Assembly: GCA_964437185.1 (NCBI GenBank) | Contig: CAYTFU010000001.1 | Location: 26,304 to 90,303 of the forward strand | Direction of reading: 5' to 3' | Source: an uncultured Candidatus Saccharibacteria bacterium | Lineage (GTDB): Bacteria; Patescibacteriota; Minisyncoccia; Phycocordibacterales; UBA2100 | DNA: 64,000 nucleotides | Shown here: piece after piece, positions 5,688 to 22,974 of the stretch | Position numbering within the stretch: the stretch's first letter is position 1 | Layout: each line of letters begins with the position of its first letter | The notes under the pieces: generated by a model | Databases searched by the model: none | What the model was told of the DNA's origin: nothing | The model's input: the letters and a program-made list of their open reading frames with translations, nothing else | Program-made: the position numbers and the translations under genes

Positions 5688-8540
5688 TTATATCGGCACA
5701 CACGTGCCATTCACCTTCACAAATCCTGCAGCACAGTTTTCTTCAAACGTTGGTAGCACATTGACCGTGGACGATCGCGAGACACTCGAAGGAGTCGAGC
5801 CTGGAAGGCCCTGACAGACGATGGTGAAGACTGTCTGAGACGCGATGGGCGAGCTCGTCTTTGCTCCCGTCGGAGTGCTCCACACACCCGTGGCATTGCT
5901 GCCCGTTCCATCGCCGTTGGTCGCCGTCACGCTGCATGACGAAACATTGCTTGCGGTCCAGAAAACATTTACGGACGTGCCGACGCGTACGAGGAGCGGG
6001 ATAACGCTCCACGAAGTGATGGCGGGAGCGGCGGTACCTATGCATCCACCGACAGAACAACCATTCGTACACATCTGAACGAGCGCACCCGTACAACTAT
6101 TGACGACATTGTTGCCCGAACATACGTTCGTGCATGATAGCGGCGGCACGCAGAGACTCGTACTCGGGTCGAGAGTCCATAGAGTGGGGCAACCGATGAA
6201 CGTGCACACGCCGGGTGATGTTTCAGTATATCCGGAGGGGCATCCCATAAACTGACATGAATTTCCGACAAATATGGATCCGATTGGGCAGTCGATTATC
6301 GGCACACAGACGCCGCCCACAAGGGTGTACCCAGGAAAACACGACGTCGGTACACACTGACCATTCACGTCGCGTGACTCACCTACTGGACATTGTGGAA
6401 CACACCCAGAAAGCGTGCTACCCGGGGTGCAGCCATTGGGAAGACATTCGCCATTGGTCATAAGTGTGGTTCCAGACGGGCATGATCCCTGACACTCTGG
6501 AAGTGTGCTGCCGGGAGAGCAGAATGTGATGCTAGAGGCCACAACGTCTATCCACGCGGAACAGTTATTGTCCTCGTTTGAACCCTCATTGATCGCCCCG
6601 AGGTCGGTCGCCGAACTTTTGTCAGCACATGCGCGCACAGAGTACGAGCCAGCCGTCAAAAAAGTGTGTGTCGCAGTAATCGGACTACTTGCGCCTGCTG
6701 CGAGCGCGGAGAAATGAATCGCTGGCGTAAGATCCACAATGGTACCGGTTCCTCCAGCGCCACCCGCAACCTGGAAGAAGTTGTTGAAGCCAACACCTAT
6801 GGATACAGGACCCCTATTCATTATAGTGGCAGACAAGGTAAACGGAGCATTGATAGTGGCACTGCCGGGACTTGTATTTACCGCGGTAAGATCGGGCAGA
6901 TTGTCGACACAAGAGCCACTCTGAAGCACTTGTCCTGCCGGACAAGCCGTGGGCACACACACACCGTCCAGCAAGACCTGACCGGTCGGACACGACACCA
7001 CAGGCACATTAACATTCACCCACTCACTGCAGTTGTTGTTTTCATACGCACCCTCGTTGATGGTACCGGCGTCTGTGGAGGAGCTCTTGTCGGCGCACGC
7101 TCGCGTGGAGTATGTGCCGCCTGCGGTAAAGGTGTGTGGAAGAGATATATCGTTGCTCGTGCCTCCTCTCAGGGATGAGAGAGAAACAGCGGGAGTGAGA
7201 TCGGTGATGGTACCTCCGCCGTTTGCTTCTGATGCGACCTGGAAGAAGTTGTAGAAGCTGATCCAACTCCCCGTTGAGCCAACGCCCGCGTTGGTAATGA
7301 TGGCGGAGAGCGTGGTCGCAACGTCGACCGTGGCGGACGTCGGGCTCGTGTTGAGTGCGGTGAGGTCGGGGCCGAGGGTGCCGCCAGTGTTGTAGAACGT
7401 GCAGGAGACGATGTTGTCTTGGTTCAACTTCACGCCGCCGATGATGCCGTCGACGATGGTGCCGGTGAGCGTTCCGTTGTCGGTTGCGCCCGTGCAGGAA
7501 GCGCCGAGGATGGTGTGGCCGCTCTGCTGGATTTCTTCAACAGACCATGGGCCGAAACCGCTGACTCTGAAAGGCTCCGTGTAGCCTAGGAAGTCGGTGG
7601 TTTTCGAGACGCCGGCGACCGTGAAATCCCACCCAGAGGCTGGAGCCTGATCGTTGGTTGTGCCCAAGTTGCCATCGACGTCGTAGATCTTCTTGACGGT
7701 GATGGTGCCTCCGCATTGCTCACGTGCGATGCTCGCCAAGTCAGTAGCGAGCGTGCTGAAGTTTGAGGAGAATACGCTGTTGGGACTTGCGATTGCCTGG
7801 AGGTTCGCCGCATCGAGACCGCTGCCGATGCCGATGGCGAGGATGCGTGTTCCCGATGACTTGATGGAGTTGGCGACCGTCACTGCTGCTGAGACTGCGG
7901 TGCTCTCGCTCACGCTCGTGTACCCACCGGTCCCATTATTAATCGTGTTTGGGTTGCCGTCGGAGGCGAATATGACGAGGTTGTTGGCTGAGGGACGGGG
8001 GTCGAAGGTGCTCTGCGAAGCGAGGAGTGCGCCCTGCCAGTTGGTGCTCCCTGATCCGTCGATGGCATCGATCTCGGAATTTACCCGCGAAAGATCATTT
8101 CCGTAGGGTAGGAACTGGAGACGGACTGTTGCTGTGTTATCGAACTTCACGAGCGAAAAGAGCGTGGGGGTTTCTGGGAGGAGTGCGCTTGTGAATCCCT
8201 TCAACGCAGACTTCATCTGAGAGAGTTCCGTGTTATCGATTGATCCCGAGACGTCCATCACGAGCGAGACGTCGAGACCGCAGGTGCCCTCGACAGGCAA
8301 GCTACACTGCCCCGCGTAGTCGGCATCGGATGGGCATGATGCGGGGACGATCTGGAGGCCGGAGTGCGAGGCGTCGGTGAATTGGACTTCGGAGGATGTA
8401 AAAGGCTTCGATGAAACTTGTGTAAAAGCTCCACTCAATATAAGTGCGGCCGCAAGCAAAGCGCCGACCACAAATACACCCTGCCATAGGTCTGCAGGAG
8501 CTACCGAGTCATCCTCACGTCGCCTCTTAGGAGCTACCAT
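5688..8540 (-). CDS. giant membrane-anchored surface protein: vWA domain, CnaB-like segment, two CARDB-like repeats and a Cys-rich C-terminal module
   Basis: 950 aa with an N-terminal transmembrane anchor. vWA MIDAS residues are present (DVSGS...T...ASDGNPN). TITVKKIYDVDGN...GWDFTV resembles a CnaB-type fold. Two tandem CARDB-like domains of about 120 aa (NTSP[TG]SAT...ACADKSS). Then a series of C.PG.TL..G.CVP repeats. Confidence 0.7.
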   Translation of the reverse strand: MVAPKRRREDDSVAPADLWQGVFVVGALLAAALILSGAFTQVSSKPFTSSEVQFTDASHSGLQIVPASCPSDADYAGQCSLPVEGTCGLDVSLVMDVSGSIDNTELSQMKSALKGFTSALLPETPTLFSLVKFDNTATVRLQFLPYGNDLSRVNSEIDAIDGSGSTNWQGALLASQSTFDPRPSANNLVIFASDGNPNTINNGTGGYTSVSESTAVSAAVTVANSIKSSGTRILAIGIGSGLDAANLQAIASPNSVFSSNFSTLATDLASIAREQCGGTITVKKIYDVDGNLGTTNDQAPASGWDFTVAGVSKTTDFLGYTEPFRVSGFGPWSVEEIQQSGHTILGASCTGATDNGTLTGTIVDGIIGGVKLNQDNIVSCTFYNTGGTLGPDLTALNTSPTSATVDVATTLSAIITNAGVGSTGSWISFYNFFQVASEANGGGTITDLTPAVSLSSLRGGTSNDISLPHTFTAGGTYSTRACADKSSSTDAGTINEGAYENNNCSEWVNVNVPVVSCPTGQVLLDGVCVPTACPAGQVLQSGSCVDNLPDLTAVNTSPGSATINAPFTLSATIMNRGPVSIGVGFNNFFQVAGGAGGTGTIVDLTPAIHFSALAAGASSPITATHTFLTAGSYSVRACADKSSATDLGAINEGSNEDNNCSAWIDVVASSITFCSPGSTLPECQGSCPSGTTLMTNGECLPNGCTPGSTLSGCVPQCPVGESRDVNGQCVPTSCFPGYTLVGGVCVPIIDCPIGSIFVGNSCQFMGCPSGYTETSPGVCTFIGCPTLWTLDPSTSLCVPPLSCTNVCSGNNVVNSCTGALVQMCTNGCSVGGCIGTAAPAITSWSVIPLLVRVGTSVNVFWTASNVSSCSVTATNGDGTGSNATGVWSTPTGAKTSSPIASQTVFTIVCQGLPGSTPSSVSRSSTVNVLPTFEENCAAGFVKVNGTCVPI
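6545..7367. repeat. intragenic tandem duplication (two CARDB-like domain copies) inside the 950-aa gene
   Basis: Protein segments aa ~392-513 and ~550-665 are about 60% identical. Off-frame ORFs at 6505..6717 and 7033..7254 share SVAELLSAHAR.EY, which shows the similarity holds at nucleotide level. Confidence 0.6.
7002..8396. repeat. copy A of a ~1.39 kb direct repeat (5' coding region of the vWA adhesin paralogues)
   Basis: aa 49-513 of the 950-aa protein are near-identical to aa 46-509 of the 1186-aa protein. Off-frame ORFs at 7693..8106 vs 27332..27757 and 7033..7254 vs 26621..27034 are almost identical, so nucleotide identity is high. Confidence 0.8.
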
Positions 8541-8647: not shown

Positions 8648-9502
8648 TCATAGCCTATCGGAATCTACTTTCATCTGAATAGTGTGCCGGTTGTCGCTCA
8701 CTGCGTTTTTAAACGCCATAACCCCTAGGCCCGCAACTTGAGGATCATTGCCGGGATATGCCACGAGCCATTGCTGCTGCGAAAGATCTGAAACCGCAGC
8801 GTGCGCTTTCTCTACCTGCGCCAACGCCTCCTCGTAGCGGCCGAGCTCAAACAATGCGGTTGCGCTCGAATTGAGCAGCCAAGGATTTGAGGGAAAATAG
8901 ATAAGCCCTTTTTGAGTGACTTGCTCTGCATATGCATATTGATTGCCCTTTAAGAGCACCCAAGCCAGATCATTGAGAGCTGCCCAGTTGCGAGGATCTG
9001 ATTCTAAATAGCGTTCGTAATCCTTCACTGAGTCGTCGTACCTACCCATATACCCCTCGATCAAACCCCGAATATAGTACGAGGATGCCGACACGGGACC
9101 ATTCGGAAGATTGATCTCCGCGTTTATTCGCACCATTGCTCTATTGAAATTACCCCTCAGAAACGACACGCGAGCGAGCTGGTGGTATACGCCGGGGAAG
9201 GTGGAGTCGAGTTTGAGCGCTTCTTCATACCAATACTCGGCACGTTTAATATCGTACTGGTCGACGTTGCTCGCATTAAAGTGCACGTTGCCATACTCGT
9301 ACGCGAGCTCGGCCGACGGATAAAACGCGAAGGTGATATTCTCTCTCGTCTGACTTTCGGAACCGCTTACGTGCAATACGACACCGACAAAAATGATAGT
9401 AGCTGCAAACAAAAGAAACACGAACTTTCTCACGGACATGCGGACAGCATGATGAATTAACCAACGCATACCGATTAGTATAGCGCGCGAGCCTTTAAGC
9501 AA
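8648..9502 (-). CDS. membrane-anchored TPR-repeat protein
   Basis: One hydrophobic helix (FVFLLFAATIIFVGVVL; possible internal start MSVRKF at 9439), followed by TPR-like helices (AEYWYEEALKLD, YERYLESDPRNWAALNDLAWVL, LGRYEEALAQVEKA). Confidence 0.55.
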   Translation of the reverse strand: MLKGSRAILIGMRWLIHHAVRMSVRKFVFLLFAATIIFVGVVLHVSGSESQTRENITFAFYPSAELAYEYGNVHFNASNVDQYDIKRAEYWYEEALKLDSTFPGVYHQLARVSFLRGNFNRAMVRINAEINLPNGPVSASSYYIRGLIEGYMGRYDDSVKDYERYLESDPRNWAALNDLAWVLLKGNQYAYAEQVTQKGLIYFPSNPWLLNSSATALFELGRYEEALAQVEKAHAAVSDLSQQQWLVAYPGNDPQVAGLGVMAFKNAVSDNRHTIQMKVDSDRL

Positions 9503-9532: not shown

Positions 9533-10630
9533 CTACGACCTCCACCCAATGTGTTTCAGATAATCCGAAAACTCTGGAGACATTTCGGCAAGCACAGAGA
9601 TTTGCCGCCTCATGAAATTCGTAGCGGGTCGCTCTTGCATATCGAGCACATCTTGACCAACACTCGGCAACCCAGATGCACTGTCGACAAAGTCCTGCAG
9701 TATTGATTTTATTCTCTCATCGCCTGCCGAACCTGCTCGAGCAGAACGGACCGCGGCGTAATGCAATAGAAACCTCAACCTCTGCTCTTGCGTGAAATTA
9801 CTCTCCGCATCAAGAGCCTCCATCAGCGCAATTGTGCGCTCATACGATTCGTCGATAATTCTGTGTTCCGTTTCTGGAAAATATAGTGAGATCGTCCCAA
9901 AGGCGATTGAGCGATTTCTATACAAATGCACCTCCCTTATTTTCGGCATTGTTGAAGTCCCGGTAGCGTCTAGCAAGCTATCGCCAGCAGCTACTAGTTC
10001 GCGTATAACTGCCGCAACCTTGAGTTGCTCTGAGCTCTCTACGTTCACGCCTTGCTCATGAAGCTTCTCAGCCAGAATGACTGCCGTTCTAAAGTTCGCG
10101 AAGGGCGTCGGGTTGAGCGCGTTTGAATCCTTAAGAAGGAGTAGTGTCGCTTCTCTTACATCCCCCCCGGCTTGGGTCAAGTACGCATTATAGGGAGGAG
10201 TATCAAACACGAGTTGCGTGAGATTTTCATTGTCCCCTGCAATACGATACAGACCACCGAATCCGTTATACACCCTCGCTTTAAGCTGATCATCGATGCG
10301 AGGACTTGCGGTTATGTCCTTCAAAATGGCAACACCATTCTGGGTATCATCTCCCTCAGATCGACTGAGCAGCGATCGAGCGAGAAAGCTGTTGGCAGCA
10401 CGCGATTCTCGGTCTGTCGAAGATACCGCCACGGCTTGAGAGCTGTACGCGACGGCCTCTGCGAAATCTCCCTTTCGATAAGACGCGTCTGCAGATCTCA
10501 TCAATGATAGAAACCTCTGCGCATGATACTGCGTGTACCCTACATACCCCCCTATACCAACGACTAGAAACACAGCCACCACAACGAGCGGAGAAATGGG
10601 CCTTTTAGCTTGTGGTGATAAATCGCTCAT
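9533..10630 (-). CDS. hypothetical membrane-anchored protein
   Basis: Long ORF 9533..10867; the likely true start is MSDLSPQAKRPISPLVVVAVFLVVGIGGY (single TM helix). The rest is a soluble domain with no recognised motif. Confidence 0.45.
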   Translation of the reverse strand: MSDLSPQAKRPISPLVVVAVFLVVGIGGYVGYTQYHAQRFLSLMRSADASYRKGDFAEAVAYSSQAVAVSSTDRESRAANSFLARSLLSRSEGDDTQNGVAILKDITASPRIDDQLKARVYNGFGGLYRIAGDNENLTQLVFDTPPYNAYLTQAGGDVREATLLLLKDSNALNPTPFANFRTAVILAEKLHEQGVNVESSEQLKVAAVIRELVAAGDSLLDATGTSTMPKIREVHLYRNRSIAFGTISLYFPETEHRIIDESYERTIALMEALDAESNFTQEQRLRFLLHYAAVRSARAGSAGDERIKSILQDFVDSASGLPSVGQDVLDMQERPATNFMRRQISVLAEMSPEFSDYLKHIGWRS

Positions 10631-10664: not shown

Positions 10665-10952
10665 TTACAGAGCGCCATCGCTGCCGGCGCCGTCGGTACC
10701 GTCGCCACCACCACCACCGGCGCCGTCGCCGGTGATAGCGCTATCCGCGGCAGCACTGTCGGCAGCACTGTCAGCCGGCGCATCTGCGTGGACCACGGAA
10801 AGACCGGCCTCTCCTCCACCATCCAGTGAAAGCTGCTTTTTCGACGGGAAGAGAACAAGTAACACAAGGAATCCTAGAAAAACCGCAGATGCGGCCACCG
10901 CACCTCTCGCCATGCGCCCCATCCGACCATACGTATTCTGTATTACGATCAT
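10665..10952 (-). CDS. small membrane protein with Gly/Asp/Ser/Ala-rich C-terminus, divergent from ycaO
   Basis: 95 aa with a TM helix AVAASAVFLGFLVLLVLF, then ADSAADSAAADSAITGDGAGGGGGDGTDGAGSDGAL. The gene contains a 12-nt tandem repeat. It overlaps the antisense ORF 10732..11037, so coding status is uncertain. Confidence 0.3.
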   Translation of the reverse strand: MIVIQNTYGRMGRMARGAVAASAVFLGFLVLLVLFPSKKQLSLDGGGEAGLSVVHADAPADSAADSAAADSAITGDGAGGGGGDGTDGAGSDGAL

Positions 10953-11039
10953 GCAGGATTATTCTCTCATAAAATTGACATCCGAGACGCAAATCCTGTG
11001 GACAAGTAACGAGAACCGGGTCCGTCTGCAGCCCTAGGG

Positions 11040-11045
11040 TATAAT
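11040..11045 (+). promoter_or_regulatory. candidate -10 hexamer (TATAAT) 6 nt upstream of the ycaO ATG, implying a leaderless transcript
   Basis: A perfect tataat at 11040-11045 with the ATG at 11052 and no Shine-Dalgarno in between. The -35 is poor (cgggtc). Confidence 0.35.
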
Positions 11046-11051
11046 GCCCTC

Positions 11052-12491
11052 ATGATTTTTGACGGCATCCCCTTTTCCCACCTCTACCAACACAAAAAAG
11101 ATGGGCTCCACCGACGGGTCGTCCCCTTCATTCGATTCCTTGAACAGCGGCTCAATGTCTCGGTATTGGCAGATCGAAAAGATTTTCCGTACGAGCGTCC
11201 TGACCTCGCAGAGCAATTCTCCCTCGCGCATATCCTGAAACAAAAGGGGATCATTAAGTCATTTAGACCTCAACAAGCGCTGTGCGACGAGCCTCCCATA
11301 AAATCTTGGATGTGCGAGTACACATCCCCCATTCGGTCTGTTACTGCTGGCGCATCCATAGACAGCGATGAGGACGCGCTAACTGCGGCTCTTGCTGAAG
11401 GGCTTGAGCGATACATCTGGATTACGCAGGATGACTATTTCAAGCGCCCGATCCGAGCATCGGTACAAAAAATCGCCTCTTATGGAAAATATATAGATCC
11501 GCGACAATTTGTGTCATTCTCAGAAGCACAACGAAAGGCTGATTCCAAACTGACGATAAAGGAAGACTCGACCTACATGTGGATTCGGGCACGTTCTCAT
11601 ACCGACAACAAAACTGTGTACGTTCCAGCGCAAACGATAAGCTCTGCATGGCGCCCATTACAACAAACCCCCGCAGAGCCCTTGATACGTCAACAATCAA
11701 CCATAGGACTGGCTACCTGGCCGACACACAAAGGGGCCATCCTCGCGGGTGCCCTCGAAGTGATCGAGCGCGAGGCATACGCCATTATGTGGTTTAATCA
11801 ACTCACCGTACCGCGAATATTGCTTCTCCCACTTCAGGAGGAAAATGCCCCCCTCAACGCGCTGGTAAAAAAATGCGAGCAATATCAGCTGCGCGTACAC
11901 GCCCTTCAAATGCCCACCGACGCGCCCGCTCACGCCATCGCAGCCATACTCGAGGATATCTCTGGGCACGCGCCTCGTTTTGCTATAGGCCTCAAGGCGC
12001 ACCGCTCATTGCCACAGGCTATAGAAGGAGCGATCTTGGAAGCACTGCGTGCTCGGCGCGGAGCGCGAAAATTCGTCGCCACTGGTCCATGGGACGGAAC
12101 CACGCCCATTGAAAAAATCGGCCATCGCGAACGTCTACACTATTGGGCAGATCCCAAAAACTCCGAGCGTCTCTCTTTCTTAATTGGGGGTGCTGAATTT
12201 GATTACACAAAAACACCCTGGGAAAATGATACTGAGACAGAGCACCTCAATCGAGTACTCGATTGGTGTAGGGCCAATGATTTCACCTGCGCCTCTGTGT
12301 CGCTCGGAGACTCAAAGGCCAACCCAACGCCTTGGTATATTGAAATGGTCGTGATACCAGAATTGCACCCAATACATTTGACTGAGCCCATGAGACACCT
12401 CGGTGGCATGAGGTTGAAAAACGTACCTAGACAATTGGGATTCACTCCTCGTGATACCCCCTTTATTGACGCTCCGCACCCCTATACATAA
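11052..12491 (+). CDS. ycaO: YcaO-domain protein (ATP-dependent cyclodehydratase / amide-activating enzyme)
   Basis: SPIRSVTAGASIDSDEDALTAALAEGLERY closely matches the E. coli YcaO ATP-binding region (KGATK..ALASALGEYFERL). The second motif IGLATWPTHKGAILAGALEVIEREAY matches SNGLA.GNT..EA...GL.EVIERD. The C-terminus is Pro-rich (DAPHPYT). Confidence 0.8.
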   Translation: MIFDGIPFSHLYQHKKDGLHRRVVPFIRFLEQRLNVSVLADRKDFPYERPDLAEQFSLAHILKQKGIIKSFRPQQALCDEPPIKSWMCEYTSPIRSVTAGASIDSDEDALTAALAEGLERYIWITQDDYFKRPIRASVQKIASYGKYIDPRQFVSFSEAQRKADSKLTIKEDSTYMWIRARSHTDNKTVYVPAQTISSAWRPLQQTPAEPLIRQQSTIGLATWPTHKGAILAGALEVIEREAYAIMWFNQLTVPRILLLPLQEENAPLNALVKKCEQYQLRVHALQMPTDAPAHAIAAILEDISGHAPRFAIGLKAHRSLPQAIEGAILEALRARRGARKFVATGPWDGTTPIEKIGHRERLHYWADPKNSERLSFLIGGAEFDYTKTPWENDTETEHLNRVLDWCRANDFTCASVSLGDSKANPTPWYIEMVVIPELHPIHLTEPMRHLGGMRLKNVPRQLGFTPRDTPFIDAPHPYT

Positions 12492-12496
12492 AAACC

Positions 12497-13213
12497 ATGA
12501 CTTTATTTATCTCACACATCCATTCCGAGATACGGCGAGCGCGCACTACGAAGCGGGGTGCTACGCATAGCGCGAGAGATGTTCCGAGGGGTACGCACAA
12601 GGAATACGCACGCATGCAGAAGGTTGCCCTTCCTCCACCGAACCCAATACTTGCTCCATTCGGCGAGGTGATACATACAAGGACTTCCTACCGCAATTGC
12701 ACGCACGGCCAGGACGCTGCCATACCCATCGAGACATTAAGTACACTTTTGGGATCAGCACTCAAAAAGCGAGCCGAAGCTTCGAATAGAAACTACCCTT
12801 CGGGAGGAGCACTATATCCGGTCGAGACCTATTTGATCACCGAGGCACTCGACGGATTCGGACCAACCGTATTTCACTACAATCCCACGCACCACGAGCT
12901 TGAAACATTGTGGCCGCTCTCCTCCCGTCTCACCCTCAAAGACCTGGCTCGAAAACCGGATGATCTTCATTTTTCATCGCTCATAGTTTTTACAAGCGTG
13001 TGGAAGCGCTCTTCGGCAAAGTATGGAGACCTTGCCTACACGCACGCACTTCTTGAAGCCGGACATATGTCTGAGAACATACTTCTCACGGCAACTGCCC
13101 TCAACCTTCTCACACGACCAATGGCTGGCTTTTCTGATGAAAAGATAATTGAGATTTTAGATCTGGACCCCGAGGAAGAGCAGCCGATACATACCATCGT
13201 ACTGTGCCGATGA
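12497..13213 (+). CDS. SagB-type (nitroreductase-fold, FMN) dehydrogenase
   Basis: Shows RTSYRNC...PIETLSTLLGSAL and the diagnostic PSGGALYPVETYL, as in the PSAGGLYP motif of TOMM dehydrogenases. The likely start is the internal MQKVALPP at 12614. It lies 6 nt downstream of ycaO and its end overlaps the next gene. Confidence 0.65.
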   Translation: MTLFISHIHSEIRRARTTKRGATHSARDVPRGTHKEYARMQKVALPPPNPILAPFGEVIHTRTSYRNCTHGQDAAIPIETLSTLLGSALKKRAEASNRNYPSGGALYPVETYLITEALDGFGPTVFHYNPTHHELETLWPLSSRLTLKDLARKPDDLHFSSLIVFTSVWKRSSAKYGDLAYTHALLEAGHMSENILLTATALNLLTRPMAGFSDEKIIEILDLDPEEEQPIHTIVLCR

Positions 13214-14862
13214 CTACCACTATGGACTTACGTGCAGAATTACGCGATGCCATAGCCGCCCAAGCATTCGTGCGCGCCTCCGCCCATACGCGCATAATTG
13301 GCGGGGACGAAAAATCCTTGGACTCTTGGATTTTTGACTTCCGAGCGCTCCTCTTGCAGCCCCGATGGCTCAATACCTACGCGGAGATCTTCTGGGATAC
13401 GCATAAAAACCTGTACCCATTCCAGGTCTGTGGAATGGAGAGTGCTGCAATATCTCTGGTCGCCGCCATCGTTATGAAAGGCACAGAACGCGGGACGCCC
13501 GTAAATGGTATCTACATACGCAAATCACGGAAGAGAACGGGCCTTTTACGACAAATTGAAGGTACCCCAAACGACAAGAAGGTTATTTTGGTCGACGACC
13601 TCATCAATTCGGGAAGCACCTTCAAAAAACAAATCGACATCCTATCGCGAAGCCATCTCTCCGTTGCGCATATTTTTGCCCTCCTCGCATTTCGTCCAAT
13701 AGAGGAGTACGGCGCTCTCACATCTCAAGGCATTTCCATCACACACCTATTCACCTTGCAGGATTTCAATCTGCCCCCCGTCAAAAACAAGAAAAACACG
13801 CCGATACAAAACACCTTCGAGACCTTGTGGCACTTCGAAGCTCCCAACCCAAGCTACAGCCTGGTGGTACAAAAGTCCGCACCCGCGATCGACGAGGATA
13901 CCGTCTATTTCGGAAGCGATGCTGGCATTTTCTATGCGCTGGACCAAAAAACCGGAGATATTCGCTGGTCGTTTCGCATCGGAAAATTCCCCGAAAACAA
14001 AGGCATACTTTCGTCCCCAGCACTCCATAATGACCGAGTGTTTTTTGGCGCATATGACGGCACTGTATACGCACTCAAATCCGACACGGGTGCCGTGGCG
14101 TGGAAATATAGCGATGCCGATTGGGTCGGCTCGTCGCCCTGCATTGCGTCAAATCTTAACCTTCTATTTGTCGGACTGGAATTTGGCCTCTGGAACAAGC
14201 GTGGCGGAATCGTGGCCCTCAACATTGAAACCGGCAGTGAGGTTTGGCGACAAAAAATGCCGACACTTACACACTGCTCTCCACTGTATATACCGGAAGA
14301 GAATATGGTGGTCGTGGGGAGCAATAATGCAACAATCTACGCGTACGAGGCTAACACCGGTACGCCGCTATGGCATTGTTATGTCGTCGGTGACGCGAAA
14401 GCTTCATTTGTGTACGATAAATCACGGCGGTGTATTTTATTTGGGACAGTGAACGGACAATTTTACGCAATCTCCGCTCAGAACGGCAACCCACTGTTTA
14501 GTAAAGAAATAACGGGGGGTATGTACTCGACCCCGACTATTGACGGCGACACGACTTACGTCGCGTCCCTCGATAAGTGCATATACGCCATCGACATGAA
14601 CACGTGGACCGATCGCTGGACGTTTGAGACAGGCGGGCGGATCTTTGCCTCGCCCATAGTACTAAATGGACATGTGTGGATCGGCTCAAACGACGGAAAA
14701 CTATATGAGATTAACGCGGCGAGCGGCAAGCTAAAAAGTTTTTTCCAAGCAACCGAGAGGATAGTTAACAGAATTGCCCATAATGAAAAGACGGGGGTAT
14801 ACTTCGTGCCAACGCAGGCAAATGAGATGTATTGCCTTCGCAAGATTCCTACGGTGGTATAA
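13204..14862 (+). CDS. fusion protein: type I phosphoribosyltransferase (OPRTase-like) domain plus PQQ-type beta-propeller
   Basis: The N-terminal ~200 aa carry KKVILVDDLINSGSTF, the PRPP-binding loop, and an OPRT-like F.F..L.. element. The C-terminal ~350 aa carry about 7 PQQ/BamB-like blades (TVYFGSDAGIFYALDQKTGDIRWSF, GTVYALKSDTGAVAWKY ...). Its start overlaps the SagB stop, suggesting translational coupling. Confidence 0.6.
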   Translation: MPMTTTMDLRAELRDAIAAQAFVRASAHTRIIGGDEKSLDSWIFDFRALLLQPRWLNTYAEIFWDTHKNLYPFQVCGMESAAISLVAAIVMKGTERGTPVNGIYIRKSRKRTGLLRQIEGTPNDKKVILVDDLINSGSTFKKQIDILSRSHLSVAHIFALLAFRPIEEYGALTSQGISITHLFTLQDFNLPPVKNKKNTPIQNTFETLWHFEAPNPSYSLVVQKSAPAIDEDTVYFGSDAGIFYALDQKTGDIRWSFRIGKFPENKGILSSPALHNDRVFFGAYDGTVYALKSDTGAVAWKYSDADWVGSSPCIASNLNLLFVGLEFGLWNKRGGIVALNIETGSEVWRQKMPTLTHCSPLYIPEENMVVVGSNNATIYAYEANTGTPLWHCYVVGDAKASFVYDKSRRCILFGTVNGQFYAISAQNGNPLFSKEITGGMYSTPTIDGDTTYVASLDKCIYAIDMNTWTDRWTFETGGRIFASPIVLNGHVWIGSNDGKLYEINAASGKLKSFFQATERIVNRIAHNEKTGVYFVPTQANEMYCLRKIPTVV

Positions 14863-14870
14863 TTTGTACG

Positions 14871-16280
14871 ATGCTGCTGCAGCTACAAAGTCTCCTGCGC
14901 AAGACACAAATTGCTTTAGCTCCTACACTCAAAGCATACAAGCGAATCTTCAGACTCCACGAGATCGAGGAGTCGCTCGTGCTTAAGTCATCGCTCGGAG
15001 CGATTCTCTTTTTCTTTTTCCTCACGTTCCAAATGTGGATGCGCTCTAGCTCCACGACATTAAGCACGGCAGCGGCAGGAAAAGCTGTGTGCTGGCCCTA
15101 TTTTCAAAATTGTTCAGATCTCTACTTCCTAGAAACATTCCCGAGCAGCTATTCTCAGTCTCTATGGTACATGGTTCTGTTTGGAATAATGCTCTCGGTC
15201 GCTTACGCCATGTGGCGGAAACACTGGACCGTCGCACACCTTCTACTGGTACCGCTCCTCCTGTGGAAGGTGTTTTCGATATTTGTGCTGAGTTATACGA
15301 TGAACGGCCCATACGATTACTACCACGTCGTCTTTACGGTCATTTTCCTATTTCTACCCTACAAAGAATATTTTTTGAAGCTCGCGGTAGTCATTCTCTA
15401 TTTCTTGTCGGCAACGATCAAACTTCATTCGACATGGGTTCTTGGTACGTATTTCTCGGCCCTACAAACCGGCCTCCCCCTCTTCCCCGATTCACTCATC
15501 CCTCTTGCTACTAATCTCGTTATATTTGAACAAATTGTCGGTGCATGGTTTCTACTTTCCAGAAATCTGCTCTGGCAGCGAATATCGCTTGCGTTCTTGA
15601 TATTCTTTCATCTCTATTCCGGAATTTTTGTCTACTATCACTATCCATCGGTTATTCTTCCGCTTCTTATCATCCTTTTTGGTCCTCTTTATACATACAC
15701 GTCGCCACCCACGGACCGGAAATCAATTCCGAGTTGGATATTTGTGCTGATGGTTATGCTCTTCCAGGTCCCTGGACTTATCATCCCCTCACCTGGTGAT
15801 CGACGGATGACACTCGAAGGCAACCGCTACGGAATGTTTATGTTCGAGGCAAATCATCAATGCATTGCAACTATTACGACCGTACGCAATGATCGCGCTG
15901 TCGCTGGGACCATCGATAAGCCGATTACCGAATCACCCTTCTCTTGCGGAAGATTTTATTGTGTCACCCGAAAAACTCAGTACCAAAACGGCGCAAATGC
16001 CGTCACGACGACACGGCATGAGGCGGCAAGTGCCTGGAATCGGTGCGACCCACACACATTTTGGTCCCAGTACCACACTCAGTGCGATAGGGACGCCGGG
16101 ATTGTTCGCATTGGAATGACCTTCGACCATTCGATCAATGGTGGTCCATTCTATCGAATCGTCGATACCTCGAACATATGCGATTTGTCATACTCCGCTG
16201 CTTCACACAATGAATGGATAGCCGTCCCACCCGCGGCGAAAATCGTGGGATACCCTGTTAAAAATTTCTATCAATTTTGA
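14871..16280 (+). CDS. polytopic membrane protein, paralogue 1 (possibly HTTM / vitamin-K-carboxylase-like fold) with Cys-containing C-terminal domain
   Basis: About 8-9 predicted TM helices. It is a paralogue of the gene at 19326..20732 (shared RLHEIE, LEGNxYGM/LFMFEANHQCI, RCDP, FDHSINGG). The track start 14832 overlaps the upstream gene; MLLQLQ at 14871 is the likely start. Confidence 0.4.
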   Translation: MLLQLQSLLRKTQIALAPTLKAYKRIFRLHEIEESLVLKSSLGAILFFFFLTFQMWMRSSSTTLSTAAAGKAVCWPYFQNCSDLYFLETFPSSYSQSLWYMVLFGIMLSVAYAMWRKHWTVAHLLLVPLLLWKVFSIFVLSYTMNGPYDYYHVVFTVIFLFLPYKEYFLKLAVVILYFLSATIKLHSTWVLGTYFSALQTGLPLFPDSLIPLATNLVIFEQIVGAWFLLSRNLLWQRISLAFLIFFHLYSGIFVYYHYPSVILPLLIILFGPLYTYTSPPTDRKSIPSWIFVLMVMLFQVPGLIIPSPGDRRMTLEGNRYGMFMFEANHQCIATITTVRNDRAVAGTIDKPITESPFSCGRFYCVTRKTQYQNGANAVTTTRHEAASAWNRCDPHTFWSQYHTQCDRDAGIVRIGMTFDHSINGGPFYRIVDTSNICDLSYSAASHNEWIAVPPAAKIVGYPVKNFYQF

Positions 16281-16558
16281 TATGGAACCAGCAACGACCA
16301 CAAACCTCATCGTGCTCAAACAGCTCGCAGGCAACGACCCTGTGACGCTCTACCCAATACAGATCATGATGGAACCGCATGTCGATCTAATCATCGCTGC
16401 CTGGACCGCCCTGTGGTTTACCACACTGACTATAGTGCTCTACAAACTCTTTCGAGAGTGGCGAAAGCGGCATTCGTAGGGCTCTCGCGCAGCTGCGATC
16501 CGCATCGTTTTCAGCACCCCCATCCATGGGTGCCAAAATGCCCAAAAGCGTTGATTAG

Positions 16559-17602
16559 TTAACAACGGGTTCGCGCTAAAGCGATTTTCATTCGTATATT
16601 TTGTAAAAATGTTGCGGGCAAAACTAAGAAACCGCCATCGGGACGCTCGACAGTCCTTGTAGGAAAGATTCGAGCTGACCTGACGACGTGTTTGCAGCAT
16701 TGCAGGACAGCTATCCCGCCACCCCCGATTTGGACGGCGTCGTAAAGCCGCGAACTCTTATGCACTATTGATGAGATTGCGGGATCGTACAAAAATGGCC
16801 CGAGACCGTGGAATACAAAAGCATTGTGTATCTTGCCAAAGGATTGCAATCTGTGAGGATGGTGCCCGAAGACTACATCGGCACCTGCGTCACGCGCTAC
16901 TGCCGCAAGCCGCTCTTGATGTGCGTCCGGCGTGAACTGAGCCGGAGCTAAAAAATTAGCCATTATGTGGAGAGATACGAATACTAAGTCTGCGCTTTTT
17001 CGTGCGTACTCAATCGCATTATGTATATTTTCTTCGGTAGCCCTTGAAACACACGGCGCACCGCTTGCTGAATAAAACCTTTCCGGCAACATGTCGGTAA
17101 ATGCCGCGAATGCTATCGTCGCGTTTTTTACGCGAACAAAACGTACCGCCGATTCTATATCGCCTACTCCCGCGTGTTGGATGTGATGTTCATCTAAGTA
17201 TTTAGTCGTTTCCTGTATTCCTTCGTGTCCGTAGTCGGCAATATGATTATTACTTAACGAAAGAACGAGATTAGGATGTAGATCCGAAAGAAAGGCAGCC
17301 TGTGTGCGGGTAAATCCTAAAGTAAAATGCTCGGTCAATCCCTTATCCCGCGGGCGAGAGCGCTCGTACACGCATCCCTCAAAGTTGGCAAACACCGCGT
17401 CAGCCTCCTGCAACCGAGTCAGAAACTTACCGAAATATCGCAGCGCGACACCTTTATTTGCCCCGAATCGAGACCGCATCAATCGGCTGCCCAACACAAG
17501 ATCCCCGATCAAAGCAATATCAAAGGTCTCGTTACACTGCGAGCAATCCCACCCCGTCATCGTCGGTCCCGAAAATAGCATGCGTAAAAGATGGTAGCAC
17601 AC
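16559..17602 (-). CDS. CapA/PgsA-family metallophosphoesterase (poly-gamma-glutamate capsule synthesis-like)
   Basis: Family motifs in order: IALIGDLVLGSR, FANFEG, SLSNNHIADYG, VVFGHHPHRLQ, FHGLGPF. Confidence 0.65.
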   Translation of the reverse strand: MCYHLLRMLFSGPTMTGWDCSQCNETFDIALIGDLVLGSRLMRSRFGANKGVALRYFGKFLTRLQEADAVFANFEGCVYERSRPRDKGLTEHFTLGFTRTQAAFLSDLHPNLVLSLSNNHIADYGHEGIQETTKYLDEHHIQHAGVGDIESAVRFVRVKNATIAFAAFTDMLPERFYSASGAPCVSRATEENIHNAIEYARKSADLVFVSLHIMANFLAPAQFTPDAHQERLAAVARDAGADVVFGHHPHRLQSFGKIHNAFVFHGLGPFLYDPAISSIVHKSSRLYDAVQIGGGGIAVLQCCKHVVRSARIFPTRTVERPDGGFLVLPATFLQNIRMKIALARTRC

Positions 17603-17651
17603 GTGACAGACTAACTTCCAATGCCATTAGCGATACGAGCACGCAGGGTCA

Positions 17652-18719
17652 CTAGTAAATCTGCAAATATTCCGGATCACAACGACGCTGTTGGTCGCTC
17701 TCGACGAGGGCGCAGATTTTTGCGGCTTCGGTACGTTTGCGAGCATATACAAACCGATTTGCCGCGAACTGAATGCATCGCTTCTGATAAAGCGGCACGT
17801 CGCTCGCGCTCTCACAAAGAGATACGACAGACTCAGGCCGGAGATTAGCATTTAGACCGACGCTCAGTCCTATCCCTCCATAGCAGGTCTCACGTAAATC
17901 TAGCTGTTTTAACGTGTCACACGTAGAACCAAGACTCGCGAGAACGGAGGGACGCGAAAAAGACTGAAACAGATCGCTATGAATTCGTAGGGGCGATATT
18001 AAAATGCAAACTTTCTTGTGCGCCGTATCTTGCATGGAATCGCATACATCAAATGGATTGTCGCGATTCACTGACCGTCGGTTGCTTCCCATGTCCCCTC
18101 CCAACAAGAACCGCTCATTATACTCCATCATCGCACCTCCGTGACAACTCAAAGTCCAGGGAATCGGCCGCTCTGGCGAGAACTTGTCGCACACTTTCAT
18201 AACCTCATTAATTTTTCCAAGCTCATAGCCAGTCTCGTACACAAGCCCATGGCCAAGCCCGTGGATACACTGTCCAACTCGCCTTTTGCCATTGAGTGAT
18301 CGGCACTGCTCTGCAGCTTGGTCTAGACTATCTGGACCCAACGCTTCTTGCATAAAGCCGACGACTTCGTGCAAACATCCCCAGTCGAAAGCATCGCCGC
18401 ACGATTCTATAGCAAGAGCCCCCTCACGTTCAAAAAGCAGTTTTCCCACAGCGTGACCGATTGCGTGATAGCGCGTGCGAGCTTCATAAACACCCTCCGC
18501 CTTAGCCCATTCCACGAGCGAATCTCCTCCGTGAACCGCGTAGTAACTTTCCAAAACTTTGGAGTTCACTTCGGTGTGCCCATTTACATTCGAACTGAGT
18601 GGATAGAAGAGGTAGGGCCGGTTGACCACAAGATACGCCAGGAAGAGGGCGCAGGTTATGCAAGCGATTAAGAGTATTTTCCAACCGTACCGAAGCAAGC
18701 GCATGAACGCATTATACAA
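17652..18719 (-). CDS. membrane-anchored Cys/His-rich extracytoplasmic protein (possible metal-binding)
   Basis: N-terminal TM helix (ILLIACITCALFLAYLVV). Repeated motifs HAIGHAVG, CIHGLGHGL, SCHGGAMM and about 14 Cys. No recognised family. Confidence 0.4.
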   Translation of the reverse strand: MYNAFMRLLRYGWKILLIACITCALFLAYLVVNRPYLFYPLSSNVNGHTEVNSKVLESYYAVHGGDSLVEWAKAEGVYEARTRYHAIGHAVGKLLFEREGALAIESCGDAFDWGCLHEVVGFMQEALGPDSLDQAAEQCRSLNGKRRVGQCIHGLGHGLVYETGYELGKINEVMKVCDKFSPERPIPWTLSCHGGAMMEYNERFLLGGDMGSNRRSVNRDNPFDVCDSMQDTAHKKVCILISPLRIHSDLFQSFSRPSVLASLGSTCDTLKQLDLRETCYGGIGLSVGLNANLRPESVVSLCESASDVPLYQKRCIQFAANRFVYARKRTEAAKICALVESDQQRRCDPEYLQIY

Positions 18720-18852
18720 ACTTCTCGCCTCAAATAAATCGTCGCGTCATTCGGCCGAGTACAGCGTAGGGGTGCGGAAACGCCAAACAACGGAGCTTTT
18801 TTTGGAAAAAAGCCGCGTGAATTCTGAATCCTGCGAAGCGGGATTACAGAAT

Positions 18853-19233
18853 TTACATCATCTTTACATCGATGGAGACGCCAGATGGGAGATCGATATT
18901 GGTGAGCGCTTCGATGACCTTGGGCTCGGGATTCATGATATCGATCATGCGCTTGTGGATGCGCATCTCAAACTGCTCTCGGGAGTCTTTGTCGATGAAA
19001 GCTGCACGGTTGACCGTGTATTTCTTGATATCGATGGGGAGCGGAACGGGACCAATAACCTCGGCATTGTGACGGGCGGCGACGTCGATGATTTGCTTCG
19101 TCGCTCCGTCGAGCACTCCGTGCTCATAGGCGCGCACGCGAATGCGCAAACGACTCGGCCCTGCCGATTTCTTTGCCCCACGAGAAGCTCGCGCCTTCGC
19201 AGGGGCCTTGGTAACCTTCGATTCCGCTGTCAT
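18853..19233 (-). CDS. rpsJ: 30S ribosomal protein S10, displaced from rplC, with N-terminal extension
   Basis: RLRIRVRAYEHGVLDGATKQIIDVAARHNAEVIGPVPLPIDIKKYTVNRAAFIDKDSREQFEMRIHKRMIDIMNPEPKVIEALTNIDLPSGVSIDVK aligns along the whole of E. coli S10. The ORF extends to 19290 with about 45 extra residues; the start at 19233 (MTAESK) is more likely. Confidence 0.85.
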   Translation of the reverse strand: MTAESKVTKAPAKARASRGAKKSAGPSRLRIRVRAYEHGVLDGATKQIIDVAARHNAEVIGPVPLPIDIKKYTVNRAAFIDKDSREQFEMRIHKRMIDIMNPEPKVIEALTNIDLPSGVSIDVKMM

Positions 19234-19325
19234 AGAACCCAAAGAGTATGCACCAGAGGAGGGGGAAAAGCAAATTTTTGTATCGGTCATTGGATAGCGC
19301 GAAACGGACGTGTAATACTGGGCGA

Positions 19326-20732
19326 ATGCAAAAGAGCTTATTAAGGGGGTACCACCGCCTCTTTGCTCTCCACGAGATCGAGACGAGCGAGATCCTACAG
19401 CTACTCTATTATGTAGTTAGTTTCTCATTCTTTGTCACCTTTTTTCTCTGGATTGAAAGAAGCGTCATTAGTATCTCAACATTCCAAAGTGGCGGGCACG
19501 TCTGCCCCCCATACCTTCCATCGTGCGGTGAATATTACTTCCTGCAAGCCCTCCCATACGGATACACGCAGAGCGCATTTTACGTATTTCTCTTTCTAGT
19601 CTTGGGGTATGGAGTGTACTCCGCATACCGTAAAAACTGGGTGGCCGCTCACGGCGCACTCTTAGTCTGCCTCGTATGGAAAGTGGTTTTGGGATTTTTT
19701 CTCACCTATGGCGTACTAGGAAATTTCGACTATTACGACATGATCCTCGCCAGCGTATGGCTCTTTATGCGAGAAAAAGAATACTTCGCAAAAATCACTT
19801 TTGTATTTCTGTACGTACTCGCATCTTCTATCAAAATCGACGGAGGGTGGATTTTTGCCAACTACTTCAACTCCCTTTTCACAGGAGCCCCAATCTTTGC
19901 GGCCCCGTATTTGCCTTTCTTTACAAACATTCTCATTGCGATGCAAATGATCGGAAGCTGGTTCTTGCTTTCGAGTAACAGCAAACTGCAGAAGGCAGCA
20001 TTCTTTTATTTTTTACTCTTCCACGCGTATTCAGGGATTATCGTCAACTACCGCTATATTGCTATCTCAATACCCGCGTTATTCGTCCTGTTCTCACAAC
20101 CCGGCCACTTTCAAATACAAAAGGTCTCCAAAACCACCCTTCTCGGGTACGGTTTTCTATTCTTACTCATCTGCGGACAACTTATCGGAATTCTCACGCC
20201 AGGTGATCAGAAAAAAACCCTCGAGGGCAATTACTATGGCCTGTATATGTTTGAAGCAAACCATCAGTGCATCTCGGAAACCACTACCTATCGCAAAGAC
20301 GCAGAGCCTGTCGTAACAAGCCGTGAAAATCATGTCGCCAACAATCGCTGCGATCCGTACCGCTACTGGTTCCCGCTTAAGACCCTCTGCACTCGCGATA
20401 GCATCATCGAGAGAATCGCATGGACGTTTGACCACTCAATCAACGGTGGCGCGTACGAACGCATCGTAGACGTGGAAGACGCGTGCGCGCTTACCTATCG
20501 GGCAATCGGCCACAATGACTGGATACAAATCGACAAGCCTGAGTTTTTGGGTACCCCTGTGTATAAAACGGGCTTCGGATACAACCTCAACTCTCAGATA
20601 AAAGTCCCTCCCGAGATAATTATTGACGATCCGTTGCTCGAAAAGATCAAGCTGGCCTATTGGATTCTCTGGTCGGCGTCCCTGGCTTTTGCGTGCGGCG
20701 CACTAATATACGTACACCTGAGAAAACGTTGA
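19326..20732 (+). CDS. polytopic membrane protein, paralogue 2 of 14871..16280
   Basis: Same architecture and motifs (ALHEIETSE, LEGNYYGLYMFEANHQCI, RCDPYRYW, FDHSINGG) plus an extra C-terminal TM helix. The ORF track starts at 19248; it is divergent from rpsJ. Confidence 0.4.
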   Translation: MQKSLLRGYHRLFALHEIETSEILQLLYYVVSFSFFVTFFLWIERSVISISTFQSGGHVCPPYLPSCGEYYFLQALPYGYTQSAFYVFLFLVLGYGVYSAYRKNWVAAHGALLVCLVWKVVLGFFLTYGVLGNFDYYDMILASVWLFMREKEYFAKITFVFLYVLASSIKIDGGWIFANYFNSLFTGAPIFAAPYLPFFTNILIAMQMIGSWFLLSSNSKLQKAAFFYFLLFHAYSGIIVNYRYIAISIPALFVLFSQPGHFQIQKVSKTTLLGYGFLFLLICGQLIGILTPGDQKKTLEGNYYGLYMFEANHQCISETTTYRKDAEPVVTSRENHVANNRCDPYRYWFPLKTLCTRDSIIERIAWTFDHSINGGAYERIVDVEDACALTYRAIGHNDWIQIDKPEFLGTPVYKTGFGYNLNSQIKVPPEIIIDDPLLEKIKLAYWILWSASLAFACGALIYVHLRKR

Positions 20733-22315: not shown

Positions 22316-22411
22316 GCAAAACTAAATTAGAAACTGTTAGTCTTGTCATGGTACCACATAAGAATCTGCGACTGTGATTGCACTGCAACACATACGTGTT
22401 ACAATAGTCCC

Positions 22412-22690
22412 ATGGCTAAGACGGGGTACGTAAATGTACGGATGGAGAAGAGGCTCAAGGCAGAAGCCGAGAAGGTTCTTCGAGAAGTCGGTGTGAATGC
22501 GTCGGACGCCCTCACTATGTTTTATAAGCAGGTCGTTATTCAGCAGGGTCTGCCCTTCGAAGTATGCACTCGATCGCACATACCCAACGCGACAACTCGT
22601 CGAGCACTTGCCGCGCTCGAACGCGGTGCGGGCCGCACCTACAAGGGAACCACCACAGATATTTTCGACGCGATACTCAAGGATAAGTAG
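22412..22690 (+). CDS. dinJ: DinJ/RelB-family antitoxin
   Basis: MAKTGYVNVRMEKRLKAEAEKVLREVGVNASDALTMFYKQVVIQQGLPFEV matches the DinJ N-terminal ribbon-helix-helix. The ORF track starts upstream at 22343. Confidence 0.7.
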   Translation: MAKTGYVNVRMEKRLKAEAEKVLREVGVNASDALTMFYKQVVIQQGLPFEVCTRSHIPNATTRRALAALERGAGRTYKGTTTDIFDAILKDK

Positions 22691-22705
22691 AATTATTTTT
22701 CCGTC

Positions 22706-22974
22706 ATGAAGGATCTCCGCTTTGACGGGTCATTTAAGCGAGATCTGAAAAGAATCGCAAGGCGAGGCTGGAGCATCGAAAAATTAGACAATATCGTTAC
22801 CCTCTTGCGCACAGCGAGCCCTCTCCCTTCAGCCGCTCGCACGCACAAACTCGGTGGCATGTACGCTGGAAAATGGAGTGCCACGTCGAGTCTGATTGGG
22901 TGCTTATCTACGATTTCACGGAGACGGTACTTCGGCTTGCTCGTACTGGCACGCACGCCGATCTATTTGAATAA
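22706..22974 (+). pseudogene. yafQ: YafQ/RelE-family toxin gene disrupted by a -1 frameshift near 22855
   Basis: Frame 1 gives MKDLRFDGSFKRDLKRI...THKLGGMYAGKW, the YafQ N-terminus. From about 22860 the alternative frame reads ECHVESDWVLIYDFTETVLRLARTGTHADLFE*, the canonical YafQ C-terminus, ending at the TAA at 22972-22974. The annotated ORF instead runs on to 23104 in the wrong frame. Confidence 0.65.

Follow-up and report, generated by a model that had tools for sequence, protein, structure and literature searches.

The 64-kb stretch of contig CAYTFU010000001.1 analysed here (64,000 nucleotides; hereafter the window) carries, among its ribosomal-protein genes, a cluster built around a YcaO protein and a SagB-type dehydrogenase. 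All of the genes that a first-pass annotation had listed for this cluster exist at or near the places it gave them. The window belongs to a genome of the Parcubacteria (Paceibacterota/Kaiserbacteria-like, CPR). For comparison, 27 species-level genomes encoding a close relative of the YcaO protein (38–54% identity) were collected, making 28 loci with the window. The proteins of the window were mapped onto the 27 relative loci, the open reading frames (ORFs) of all 28 loci were then clustered into families, and the linkage of a partner was scored within 10 kb of the YcaO cluster. The synteny is kept in 27 independent genomes. Therefore, the arrangement is not due to chance. The YcaO homologues and the genomes carrying them are labelled Parcubacteria, Paceibacterota, Kaiserbacteria, Nomurabacteria or Adlerbacteria, and some are mislabelled 'Saccharibacteria'. 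The EF-Tu cluster at 90% identity is Kaiserbacteria/Paceibacterota, and identical copies of the YcaO protein of the window occur on metagenomic contigs.

The enzyme operon

Five genes on the forward strand are spaced by 5, –4, 8 and 1 nt. Therefore, they constitute one operon. The first gene (11052–12491, +) encodes a YcaO protein of 479 residues, assigned as an ATP-dependent amide-activating enzyme of the SagD-like cyclodehydratase type found in pathways for thiazole/oxazole-modified microcins (TOMMs). It matched PF02624 with an E value of 1.1e-41 (143.7 bits). Its best NCBIfam model was the SagD-type TIGR03604 (180 bits), and the Escherichia coli-type TIGR00702 gave 41.2 bits against a cut-off of 75.65, which places the protein outside that family. 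An alignment of 17 homologues shows no variation in either E-x-x-E-R motif for ATP binding (E116/E119/R120 and E236/E239/R240); the first-pass annotation had recognised both motifs. Homologues found in the homologue search are 42–54% identical. The closest solved relatives are the azoline-forming cyanobactin heterocyclases LynD, TruD and MusD (E values from 1e-10 to 1e-11). These enzymes are about 780 residues long and have fused N-terminal E1-like and RiPP recognition element (RRE) domains (RiPP, ribosomally synthesised and post-translationally modified peptide), whereas the YcaO protein here is shorter and has a family-specific N-terminal extension of 100 residues, in which no RRE fold was detected.

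The second gene (12497–13213, +) encodes a SagB-type azoline dehydrogenase dependent on flavin mononucleotide (FMN). It scored 108 bits against TIGR03605, above the cut-off of 78 bits, and the motifs R-x-Y-P-S-x-G and K175-Y176-G177 are kept in 25 homologues. The gene adjoins the YcaO gene in 25 of the 28 loci. The profile hidden Markov models confirmed the two proteins as a predicted TOMM-like catalytic core, in agreement with the first-pass annotation. The cluster is duplicated in three loci (L012, L017 and L032). Second YcaO/SagB pairs were also observed in L020 and L030, and L018 has a second, divergent YcaO protein of 22% identity.

The third gene (13210–14862, +) encodes an unusual fusion, referred to here as the PRT-propeller protein. 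Its first 200 residues or so form a phosphoribosyl pyrophosphate (PRPP)-binding domain resembling orotate phosphoribosyltransferase (OPRTase), and the remainder is a seven-repeat beta-propeller of the PQQ/ACSF4 type. The ATG at 13210, which is probably the real start, overlaps the stop codon of the SagB gene as ATGA. The propeller part matched PF13570 with 173 bits and shows seven repeat motifs. The phosphoribosyltransferase part is OPRTase-like, with a sub-threshold score of 23.5 bits against PF00156, and its best solved match is human OPRTase (2wns, E value 7e-9, residues 43–185). An assignment as PyrE was rejected, since the scores against TIGR00336 (46.3 bits, cut-off 106.8) and NF001729 (30 bits, cut-off 245) are far too low. 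The PRPP loop VILVDDLINSGST and a basic flexible loop, R106-K107-S108-R109, are present, as in type I phosphoribosyltransferases. Among 30 sequences, R106, K107, S108, R109, E119, G120, D131, N135 and G137 are invariant. Therefore, the domain probably still binds PRPP or a nucleotide. The likeness to PyrE and to the OPRTase domain of UMPS extends over residues 43–185 and includes the PRPP loop and the conserved R-K-x-R loop. The differences are the fused propeller, the genetic tie to peptide-modifying enzymes and an N-terminal substrate-hood motif unlike that of OPRTases.

More than 120 homologues of the PRT-propeller protein were found at 49–61% identity, most of them 530–570 residues long, and all of the named ones are from Parcubacteria. 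The protein is thus better conserved than YcaO (49–61% against 42–54% identity). It occurs in 22 of the 28 loci; the fusion itself and its coupling to the SagB gene had been described in the first-pass annotation. A search with the phosphoribosyltransferase domain gave 1058 relatives, and among the best 150 most are full-length propeller fusions. Longer members carry an extra domain, namely an HlyC acyltransferase (two proteins), an Asp/Asn beta-hydroxylase (two), a Stf0 sulfotransferase (one) or a formyltransferase (one). These extra-domain proteins and their neighbours come from other organisms, outside the window (P0388, P0445, P0466, P0470, P0472 and P0505). One HlyC fusion lies beside an ATP-binding cassette (ABC) exporter with a C39 peptidase, an HlyD-type protein, an Asp hydroxylase, a 2-oxoglutarate oxygenase and a GNAT protein. 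Next to a second fusion are the genes for an Asp hydroxylase and a protein of 6080 residues, and the neighbours of P0472 include no recognisable peptide-maturation gene. The fusions and their neighbours indicate that the PRT-propeller module repeatedly accompanies enzymes modifying secreted peptides or proteins. It may be a substrate-docking module, a PRPP-using tailoring module, or both, taking the place of the E1-like/RRE subunit. A search of the literature for YcaO proteins with a phosphoribosyltransferase or a beta-propeller found nothing relevant.

The fourth gene, memA (14871–16280, +), encodes a polytopic membrane protein whose beta-rich domain, on the extracytoplasmic side, contains Cys. 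The AlphaFold2 model (mean pLDDT, the predicted local distance difference test, of 89) has the fold of human GGCX, the vitamin-K-dependent gamma-carboxylase (VKGC), as fold comparison revealed both the HTTM transmembrane fold and the lumenal beta-rich domain. The sequence identity to GGCX is only 14–16%. None of the 575 homologues in the family is annotated or has a Pfam domain. The conserved cysteines of the family in the loops and the C-terminal domain (C75, C82, C332, C393, C406 and C438) fit an extracytoplasmic domain. GGCX was absent from the matches of memA in profile-versus-PDB and fragment searches, and the lumenal VKGC profile PF22777 was hit by one of 12 members at an E value of 0.32, which does not place the family within it. 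In a targeted hhalign comparison, residues 176–195 of memA (ILYFLSATIKLHSTWVLGTY) aligned with residues 209–228 of GGCX, a segment verified against the PDB. K185 of memA, invariant in 40 sequences, is paired there with K218 of GGCX, the catalytic base (PMC12589487). The alignment is supportive rather than conclusive for memA keeping an equivalent of the catalytic lysine.

The GGCX-like gene is present in 10 of the 28 loci. It lies between the SagB and PRT-propeller genes in L011, L016, L019 and L023, and immediately downstream of a candidate precursor gene, of the kind described below, on the same strand in L028. These gene orders link it directly to the peptide. The fifth gene (16282–16479, +) encodes a protein of 65 residues with a single transmembrane (TM) helix. 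It is kept behind the memA gene in eight loci, and the protein is probably a subunit of the GGCX-like protein. On the other side of rpsJ lies a second GGCX-like gene (19326–20732, +) with a fused C-terminal TM tail; the two paralogues, already recognised in the first-pass annotation, are 38% identical. The tail (20520–20732) weakly resembles the 65-residue protein (28% identity over 47 residues, pairwise E value 0.013), which points to fusion or fission of genes and hence to an enzyme of two subunits. Among RiPP clusters, those for linaridins contain HTTM proteins (PMC9927463). Compared with GGCX and the bacterial HTTM proteins, memA lacks about 200 residues of the length of GGCX and is accompanied by a separate small TM protein as its likely subunit, and its candidate substrates are Asp-rich, not Glu-rich. 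SdpB is a further HTTM precedent. The literature on vitamin-K carboxylase in the Candidate Phyla Radiation (CPR) yielded nothing relevant.

A perfect TATAAT was observed at 11040–11045, ending 6 nt ahead of the ATG of the YcaO gene at 11052. The consensus scan missed it because there is no good –35 hexamer; the promoter and terminator scan gave sites that were fewer than, or no more than, those in shuffled controls and so was uninformative. From the position of this element, the YcaO transcript would be leaderless or nearly so.

The candidate precursor family

A small ORF (10665–10952, –) is divergent from the YcaO gene and encodes 95 residues, or 82 residues from an alternative ATG at 10913. 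Its product has a basic N-terminus, one TM helix (approximately residues 17–35), a VVHADAP junction and a core of 38 residues rich in Gly, Asp, Ser, Ala and Thr, in which Cys is absent. The sequence runs ...AVFLGFLVLLVLF...VVHAD-APADSAADSAAADSAITGDGAGGGGGDGTDGAGSDGAL, and it matched no Pfam or NCBIfam family. The first-pass annotation saw no credible precursor in the region and discounted this ORF because its core is free of Cys. That view does not hold. A motif-plus-composition search in six frames over 494 kb from the 28 loci retrieved 31 ORFs of this kind in 25 of the loci. Nearly all of them adjoin a YcaO gene and are divergent from it, and the duplicated clusters in L012, L017 and L032 have one precursor ORF apiece.

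The members share a Lys/Arg-rich N-terminus followed by a hydrophobic helix of 17–20 residues, often with G-F-F. The junction, usually V-A-H-A-D-(A/T)-P, is placed 10–22 residues past the helix, and the tail beyond it reaches the stop codon with a median length of 41 residues and a mean net charge of –5. The cores consist of Gly (31%), Ser (19%), Asp (12%), Cys (11.5%) and Ala (10%), with Cys, Ser and Thr summing up to 34%, and the residue preceding Cys, Ser or Thr is most often Gly. Cys is present in 28 of the 31 cores, the copy in the window being among the three exceptions. In composition the cores resemble microcin B17. The leader and the junction are conserved and the core is hypervariable between genomes. 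This is the usual pattern of RiPPs. In 30 of the 31 ORFs, Lys and Arg are more frequent on the N-terminal side of the helix than on its C-terminal flank (3.2 versus 1.4). By the positive-inside rule, this bias predicts an N-in/C-out leader with the acidic core outside the cell.

Two further ORFs were observed in relatives. In L018, a precursor-like ORF (2275–2730, –) with a TAHADAP junction and a core of Glu-Gly/Gln-Gly repeats lies near the second divergent YcaO gene. In L021, a leader-only ORF and a TPR-like gene are divergent from a GGCX-like gene.

Chromosomal setting and neighbouring genes

The str-S10 array lies on the minus strand in the order rpsG, fusA, tuf, rpsJ, rplC, rplD, rplW and rplB, with tuf at 23159–24358, rpsJ (uS10) at 18853–19290 and rplC at 4272–4904. 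It spans about 2300–34700 of the window and is split by three insertions of about 6.4, 3.9 and 13.9 kb. The YcaO cluster is the third of these, between rpsJ and rplC, and extends beyond rpsJ. This placement, described in the first-pass annotation, is real, and several relatives show the order rplC, cluster, rpsJ as well. The distance from the cluster to rplC, rpsJ or tuf is no more than 10 kb in at least 14 of the 28 loci. The insertion point varies, since the cluster adjoins tuf in L030 and L033, and ribosomal genes are missing from the vicinity in five loci whose 10-kb flanks are complete. The enzyme operon runs antisense to the ribosomal genes, and the precursor, TPR and VWA genes have the same direction as rplC. 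The position at the ribosomal locus is best read as an old insertion that has been vertically inherited.

Directly downstream of the precursor gene, an ORF of 365 codons (9533–10630, –) encodes a TPR-like protein held in the membrane by one N-terminal TM helix. Its family stands beside the precursor in 23 of the 28 loci, and an orthologue gives TPR matches. Next to it is a membrane-anchored protein with Pfam TPR matches (8648–9502, –; 273 residues from the gene-caller start at 9469). This family is found in 19 of the 28 loci, and its flank charges fit an N-in orientation in 13 of 14 informative cases. A large surface-type protein with Pfam VWA and CARDB domains (5688–8540, –) belongs to a family, related through the C-terminus, that occurs in 15 of the 28 loci; it is a conserved neighbour, and its role in the system is uncertain. 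It is 90% identical to a second VWA-CARDB protein (24610–28170, –) over the first 467 residues or so, followed by segments of 61% and 42% identity. This pair, which flanks tuf and rpsJ, has the appearance of a surface-protein gene that was recently duplicated in part or underwent gene conversion.

Two neighbours named as partners in the first-pass annotation are present in the window, but neither is a constant companion of the cluster. The membrane-anchored Cys/His-rich protein (17652–18719, –), with one TM helix and 16 Cys, is an occasional neighbour whose family occurs in only five of the 28 loci, and it is a weak candidate for a core partner. The CapA/PGA_cap-family metallophosphoesterase (16559–17602, –; PF09587, E value 8e-41) is specific to the window. 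It was rejected as a conserved partner because none of the 27 related loci has a homologue, and it is probably not part of the conserved system; against NF038314, the model of the lasso-peptide epimerase MslH, it scored 50.7 bits, far under the cut-off of 700. In contrast, the proposal of non-canonical partners was borne out for the PRT-propeller and HTTM-like proteins, since in related genomes, too, the genes of both are linked to the core.

In relatives, a four-TM protein of about 175 residues with an invariant G-F-G-C-A-(A/S)-C-G motif (GCxxCG) is encoded downstream of the cluster in 10 loci (L008, 12787–13311; L018, 14410–14937; L033, 6284–6796; and seven others). A conserved Cys close to the C-terminus, within V-C-P in six of the 10, is shared by most members, and no meaningful Pfam match was obtained. 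Its gene is often preceded by genes for TM-anchored DsbA-like and rhodanese-like proteins, which were found in eight and nine of the 28 loci, respectively. The four-TM protein may be a thiol-oxidation module for the Cys-rich cores. The four-TM, DsbA-like and rhodanese-like families are all absent from the entire 64-kb window.

Several other features were observed in the window. The uS10 ORF encodes 145 residues, of which only residues 49–143 are covered by the Pfam domain; the uS10 proteins of relatives likewise have a basic N-terminal extension, of about 20–25 residues. An ORF of 240 codons antisense to rpsJ (18622–19344, +) has no family match and is probably spurious. A RelB antitoxin/YafQ-type toxin pair (22343–23104, +) lies within the ribosomal array between GNAT/DUF924 genes and tuf. 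Genes for ComEC and the type IV pilus (PilC-like T2SSF and PilB-like T2SSE), which are usual for CPR bacteria, are located at 41894–43417 and 55849–59835 (–), with no evident link to the cluster. Scans of the window for tRNA and Rfam families gave no matches.

A probable peptide-maturation system and its alternatives

Most plausibly, the region encodes a system, present throughout this lineage of Parcubacteria, for the maturation of a small peptide anchored in the membrane. It would be a variant of the TOMM or linear azol(in)e-containing peptide (LAP) pathway. At first, the cytoplasmic YcaO would activate backbone amides with ATP so that Cys, Ser and Thr cyclise to azolines, which the SagB-type dehydrogenase would oxidise to azoles; in the Cys-free core of the window, only Ser and Thr would be left for cyclisation. 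Second, the PRT-propeller protein would act as a third cytoplasmic subunit in place of the E1-like/RRE docking protein, with the propeller binding the peptide. The invariance of its PRPP-site residues makes it probable that the protein binds or uses PRPP as well, perhaps to add a group derived from ribose phosphate. Third, the leader helix would insert N-in/C-out and display the acidic modified core outside, so that an ABC exporter would not be needed. Finally, the core would encounter the TPR proteins anchored in the membrane and the GGCX-like enzyme together with its probable small TM subunit; in relatives, membrane proteins of the DsbA-like, rhodanese-like and CxxC families would be met there as well. 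All these extracytoplasmic proteins may process, further modify or hold the core, with a possible cut at A-H-A|D. The GGCX-like protein might carboxylate Asp or Glu, perform another quinol-dependent oxidation, or take part in processing. The deep conservation and the fixed chromosomal position suggest a role in the envelope or in host interaction rather than a strain-specific antibiotic.

The system resembles those of microcin B17 and other LAPs (McbBCD, SagBCD) in the pairing of YcaO with a SagB/McbC-type FMN dehydrogenase and in a precursor core rich in Gly, Ser and Cys, with Gly favoured before the cyclisable residue. It differs from them in lacking an E1-like/RRE protein (McbB/SagC), a protease, whether of the TldD/E type or another, and an ABC exporter, and in the TM helix of the leader, the strongly acidic cores, and the additional PRT-propeller and GGCX-like partners. 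E. coli-type YcaO, a proposed RimO or uL16 thioamidation helper, shares the superfamily and the proximity to ribosomal genes with the protein studied here, which instead has a dehydrogenase partner and a dedicated precursor. Sharrar et al. (2020) reported 110 'LAP' clusters called by antiSMASH in 93 CPR genomes, 51 of them Parcubacteria, with a nitroreductase next to YcaO in 89 of the 110 and a precursor of about 84 residues beside YcaO, and illustrated a Microgenomates cluster with a peptidase (PMC7298704). The cluster in the window very probably belongs to this class. The TM leader, the VAHAD motif, the PRT-propeller protein, the GGCX-like enzyme and the position at the ribosomal locus are undescribed there, and no searchable paper was found that mentions the TM-anchored leader family, the PRT-propeller protein, the GGCX-like enzyme or the conserved chromosomal context. 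The view of the first-pass annotation, which took the gene combination to be unlike described YcaO systems, is supported as to the non-canonical set of partners; CPR clusters of YcaO with a nitroreductase are already known.

Several points weigh against this reading. The YcaO protein stays under the 219-bit cut-off of the SagD-type model. The E1-like/RRE partner normally required for azoline-forming YcaO proteins of the SagD type was not found; the clustered ORFs of the 28 loci include no E1-like/ThiF, RRE, TfuA, protease or ABC exporter family. The first-pass annotation had likewise seen no E1-like/RRE partner and no ABC exporter. The formation of azoles is predicted from gene content. In the window, the core has no Cys and its Ser residues are mostly preceded by Asp, not Gly. 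The N-in/C-out topology is read from the positive-inside rule only, and a leader inserting in this way would have to be held back from the membrane until the cytoplasmic enzymes are done. The PRT-propeller gene is not within 10 kb of the cluster in six of the 28 loci, and the GGCX-like gene is not in 18. Concerning memA, the alignment around K185 is a short one of 20 columns, with an hhalign probability of 5% and a pairwise E value of 0.007, and the family has no match to the Pfam HTTM profile PF05090, so that the HTTM guess of the first-pass annotation stood by fold and failed by profile. Quinone synthesis, on which a true vitamin-K-type reaction depends, is not known from CPR bacteria.

Among the alternatives, a conventional secreted LAP bacteriocin survives best. 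The product would then be a diffusible azole antibiotic released from an unusual leader of the Sec type by cleavage at A-H-A|D, with the other genes serving immunity or being bystanders. The microcin-B17-like composition of the cores, their hypervariability between genomes as in bacteriocins, the A-x-A form of the junction, as in signal-peptidase sites, and the assignment of such CPR clusters as LAP by antiSMASH (PMC7298704) all agree with it. However, several Parcubacteria families have kept the cluster by vertical descent, and a number of these carry it at one site within the ribosomal-protein locus. Such conservation is atypical for accessory antibiotic clusters, above all in genomes of about 1 Mb. 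In addition, no immunity or exporter genes were seen, and A-H-A lies 10–22 residues beyond the helix. Normal signal-peptidase sites are closer to the helix than this. We regard the bacteriocin explanation as unlikely, though still worth bearing in mind.

It is less probable again that the same precursor undergoes non-azole chemistry, ending as a thioamide, an amidine or an azoline only, and that the PRT-propeller protein is unrelated, serving for instance nucleotide salvage or regulation. CPR bacteria depend on nucleotide salvage, the YcaO protein lies below the family cut-off and is without its usual partner, and rhodanese-like genes, whose products are possible sulfur carriers, are near the cluster in nine loci. 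On the other hand, the score of the dehydrogenase exceeds the cut-off of its family, its K-Y motif is intact, and 25 of the 28 loci have its gene beside that of YcaO. No TfuA was found, and the rhodanese-like proteins have an N-terminal TM helix. The PRT-propeller gene overlaps the SagB stop, and its product is more conserved than YcaO and far under the PyrE cut-off.

The small ORF could also encode an ordinary low-complexity membrane or surface protein that shares regulation with YcaO and is unmodified by it. The Cys-free cores of the window and two relatives, together with the fact that a leader-binding domain was not identified, would fit this. The presence of Cys in 28 of the 31 cores, the content of Cys, Ser and Thr and the preference for a preceding Gly do not, and neither does the divergent pairing with YcaO, kept in 25 of the 28 loci including the duplicated clusters. 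This explanation is quite improbable. Least probable is the modification of a ribosomal or other large protein by the YcaO pair, raised in the first-pass annotation: the cluster does lie within the str-S10 array in the window as well as in at least 13 of the related loci, and a connection of E. coli YcaO with modifications of ribosomal proteins has been reported (PMC7550191), but a dedicated co-located precursor family, a TOMM-like YcaO, an operon on the strand opposite to the ribosomal genes, five fully flanked loci free of ribosomal genes and two loci (L030 and L033) beside tuf make such a substrate unlikely.

CPR genomes, including those of Parcubacteria, are about 1 Mb in size and encode little biosynthesis. 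A multi-gene peptide maturation system kept across several Parcubacteria families is therefore probably important for the envelope or for host contact. For RiPP enzymology, the cluster offers a YcaO/dehydrogenase pair without the canonical E1-like/RRE partner and a precursor whose leader is a predicted membrane anchor, for which a dedicated exporter would be unnecessary. The PRT-propeller protein is a candidate for a new recognition or tailoring module, elsewhere fused to HlyC, Asp-hydroxylase, sulfotransferase and formyltransferase domains. Besides, a vitamin-K carboxylase homologue is paired here with a concrete candidate substrate, which makes the role of bacterial HTTM/VKGC-like proteins testable.

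A bolder proposal may be added, which we hold to be doubtful, and slightly less probable than the bacteriocin explanation. The PRT-propeller proteins might be a new and widespread class of peptide docking and tailoring proteins that use PRPP, for example for phosphoribosylation, and replace the RRE/E1-like partner, and the GGCX-like protein might be a genuine bacterial carboxylase-type enzyme acting on Asp or Glu of an exported azole-containing RiPP. If both were true, Parcubacteria would gain a modified peptide on the cell surface that binds calcium or other metals and is important for their episymbiotic life.

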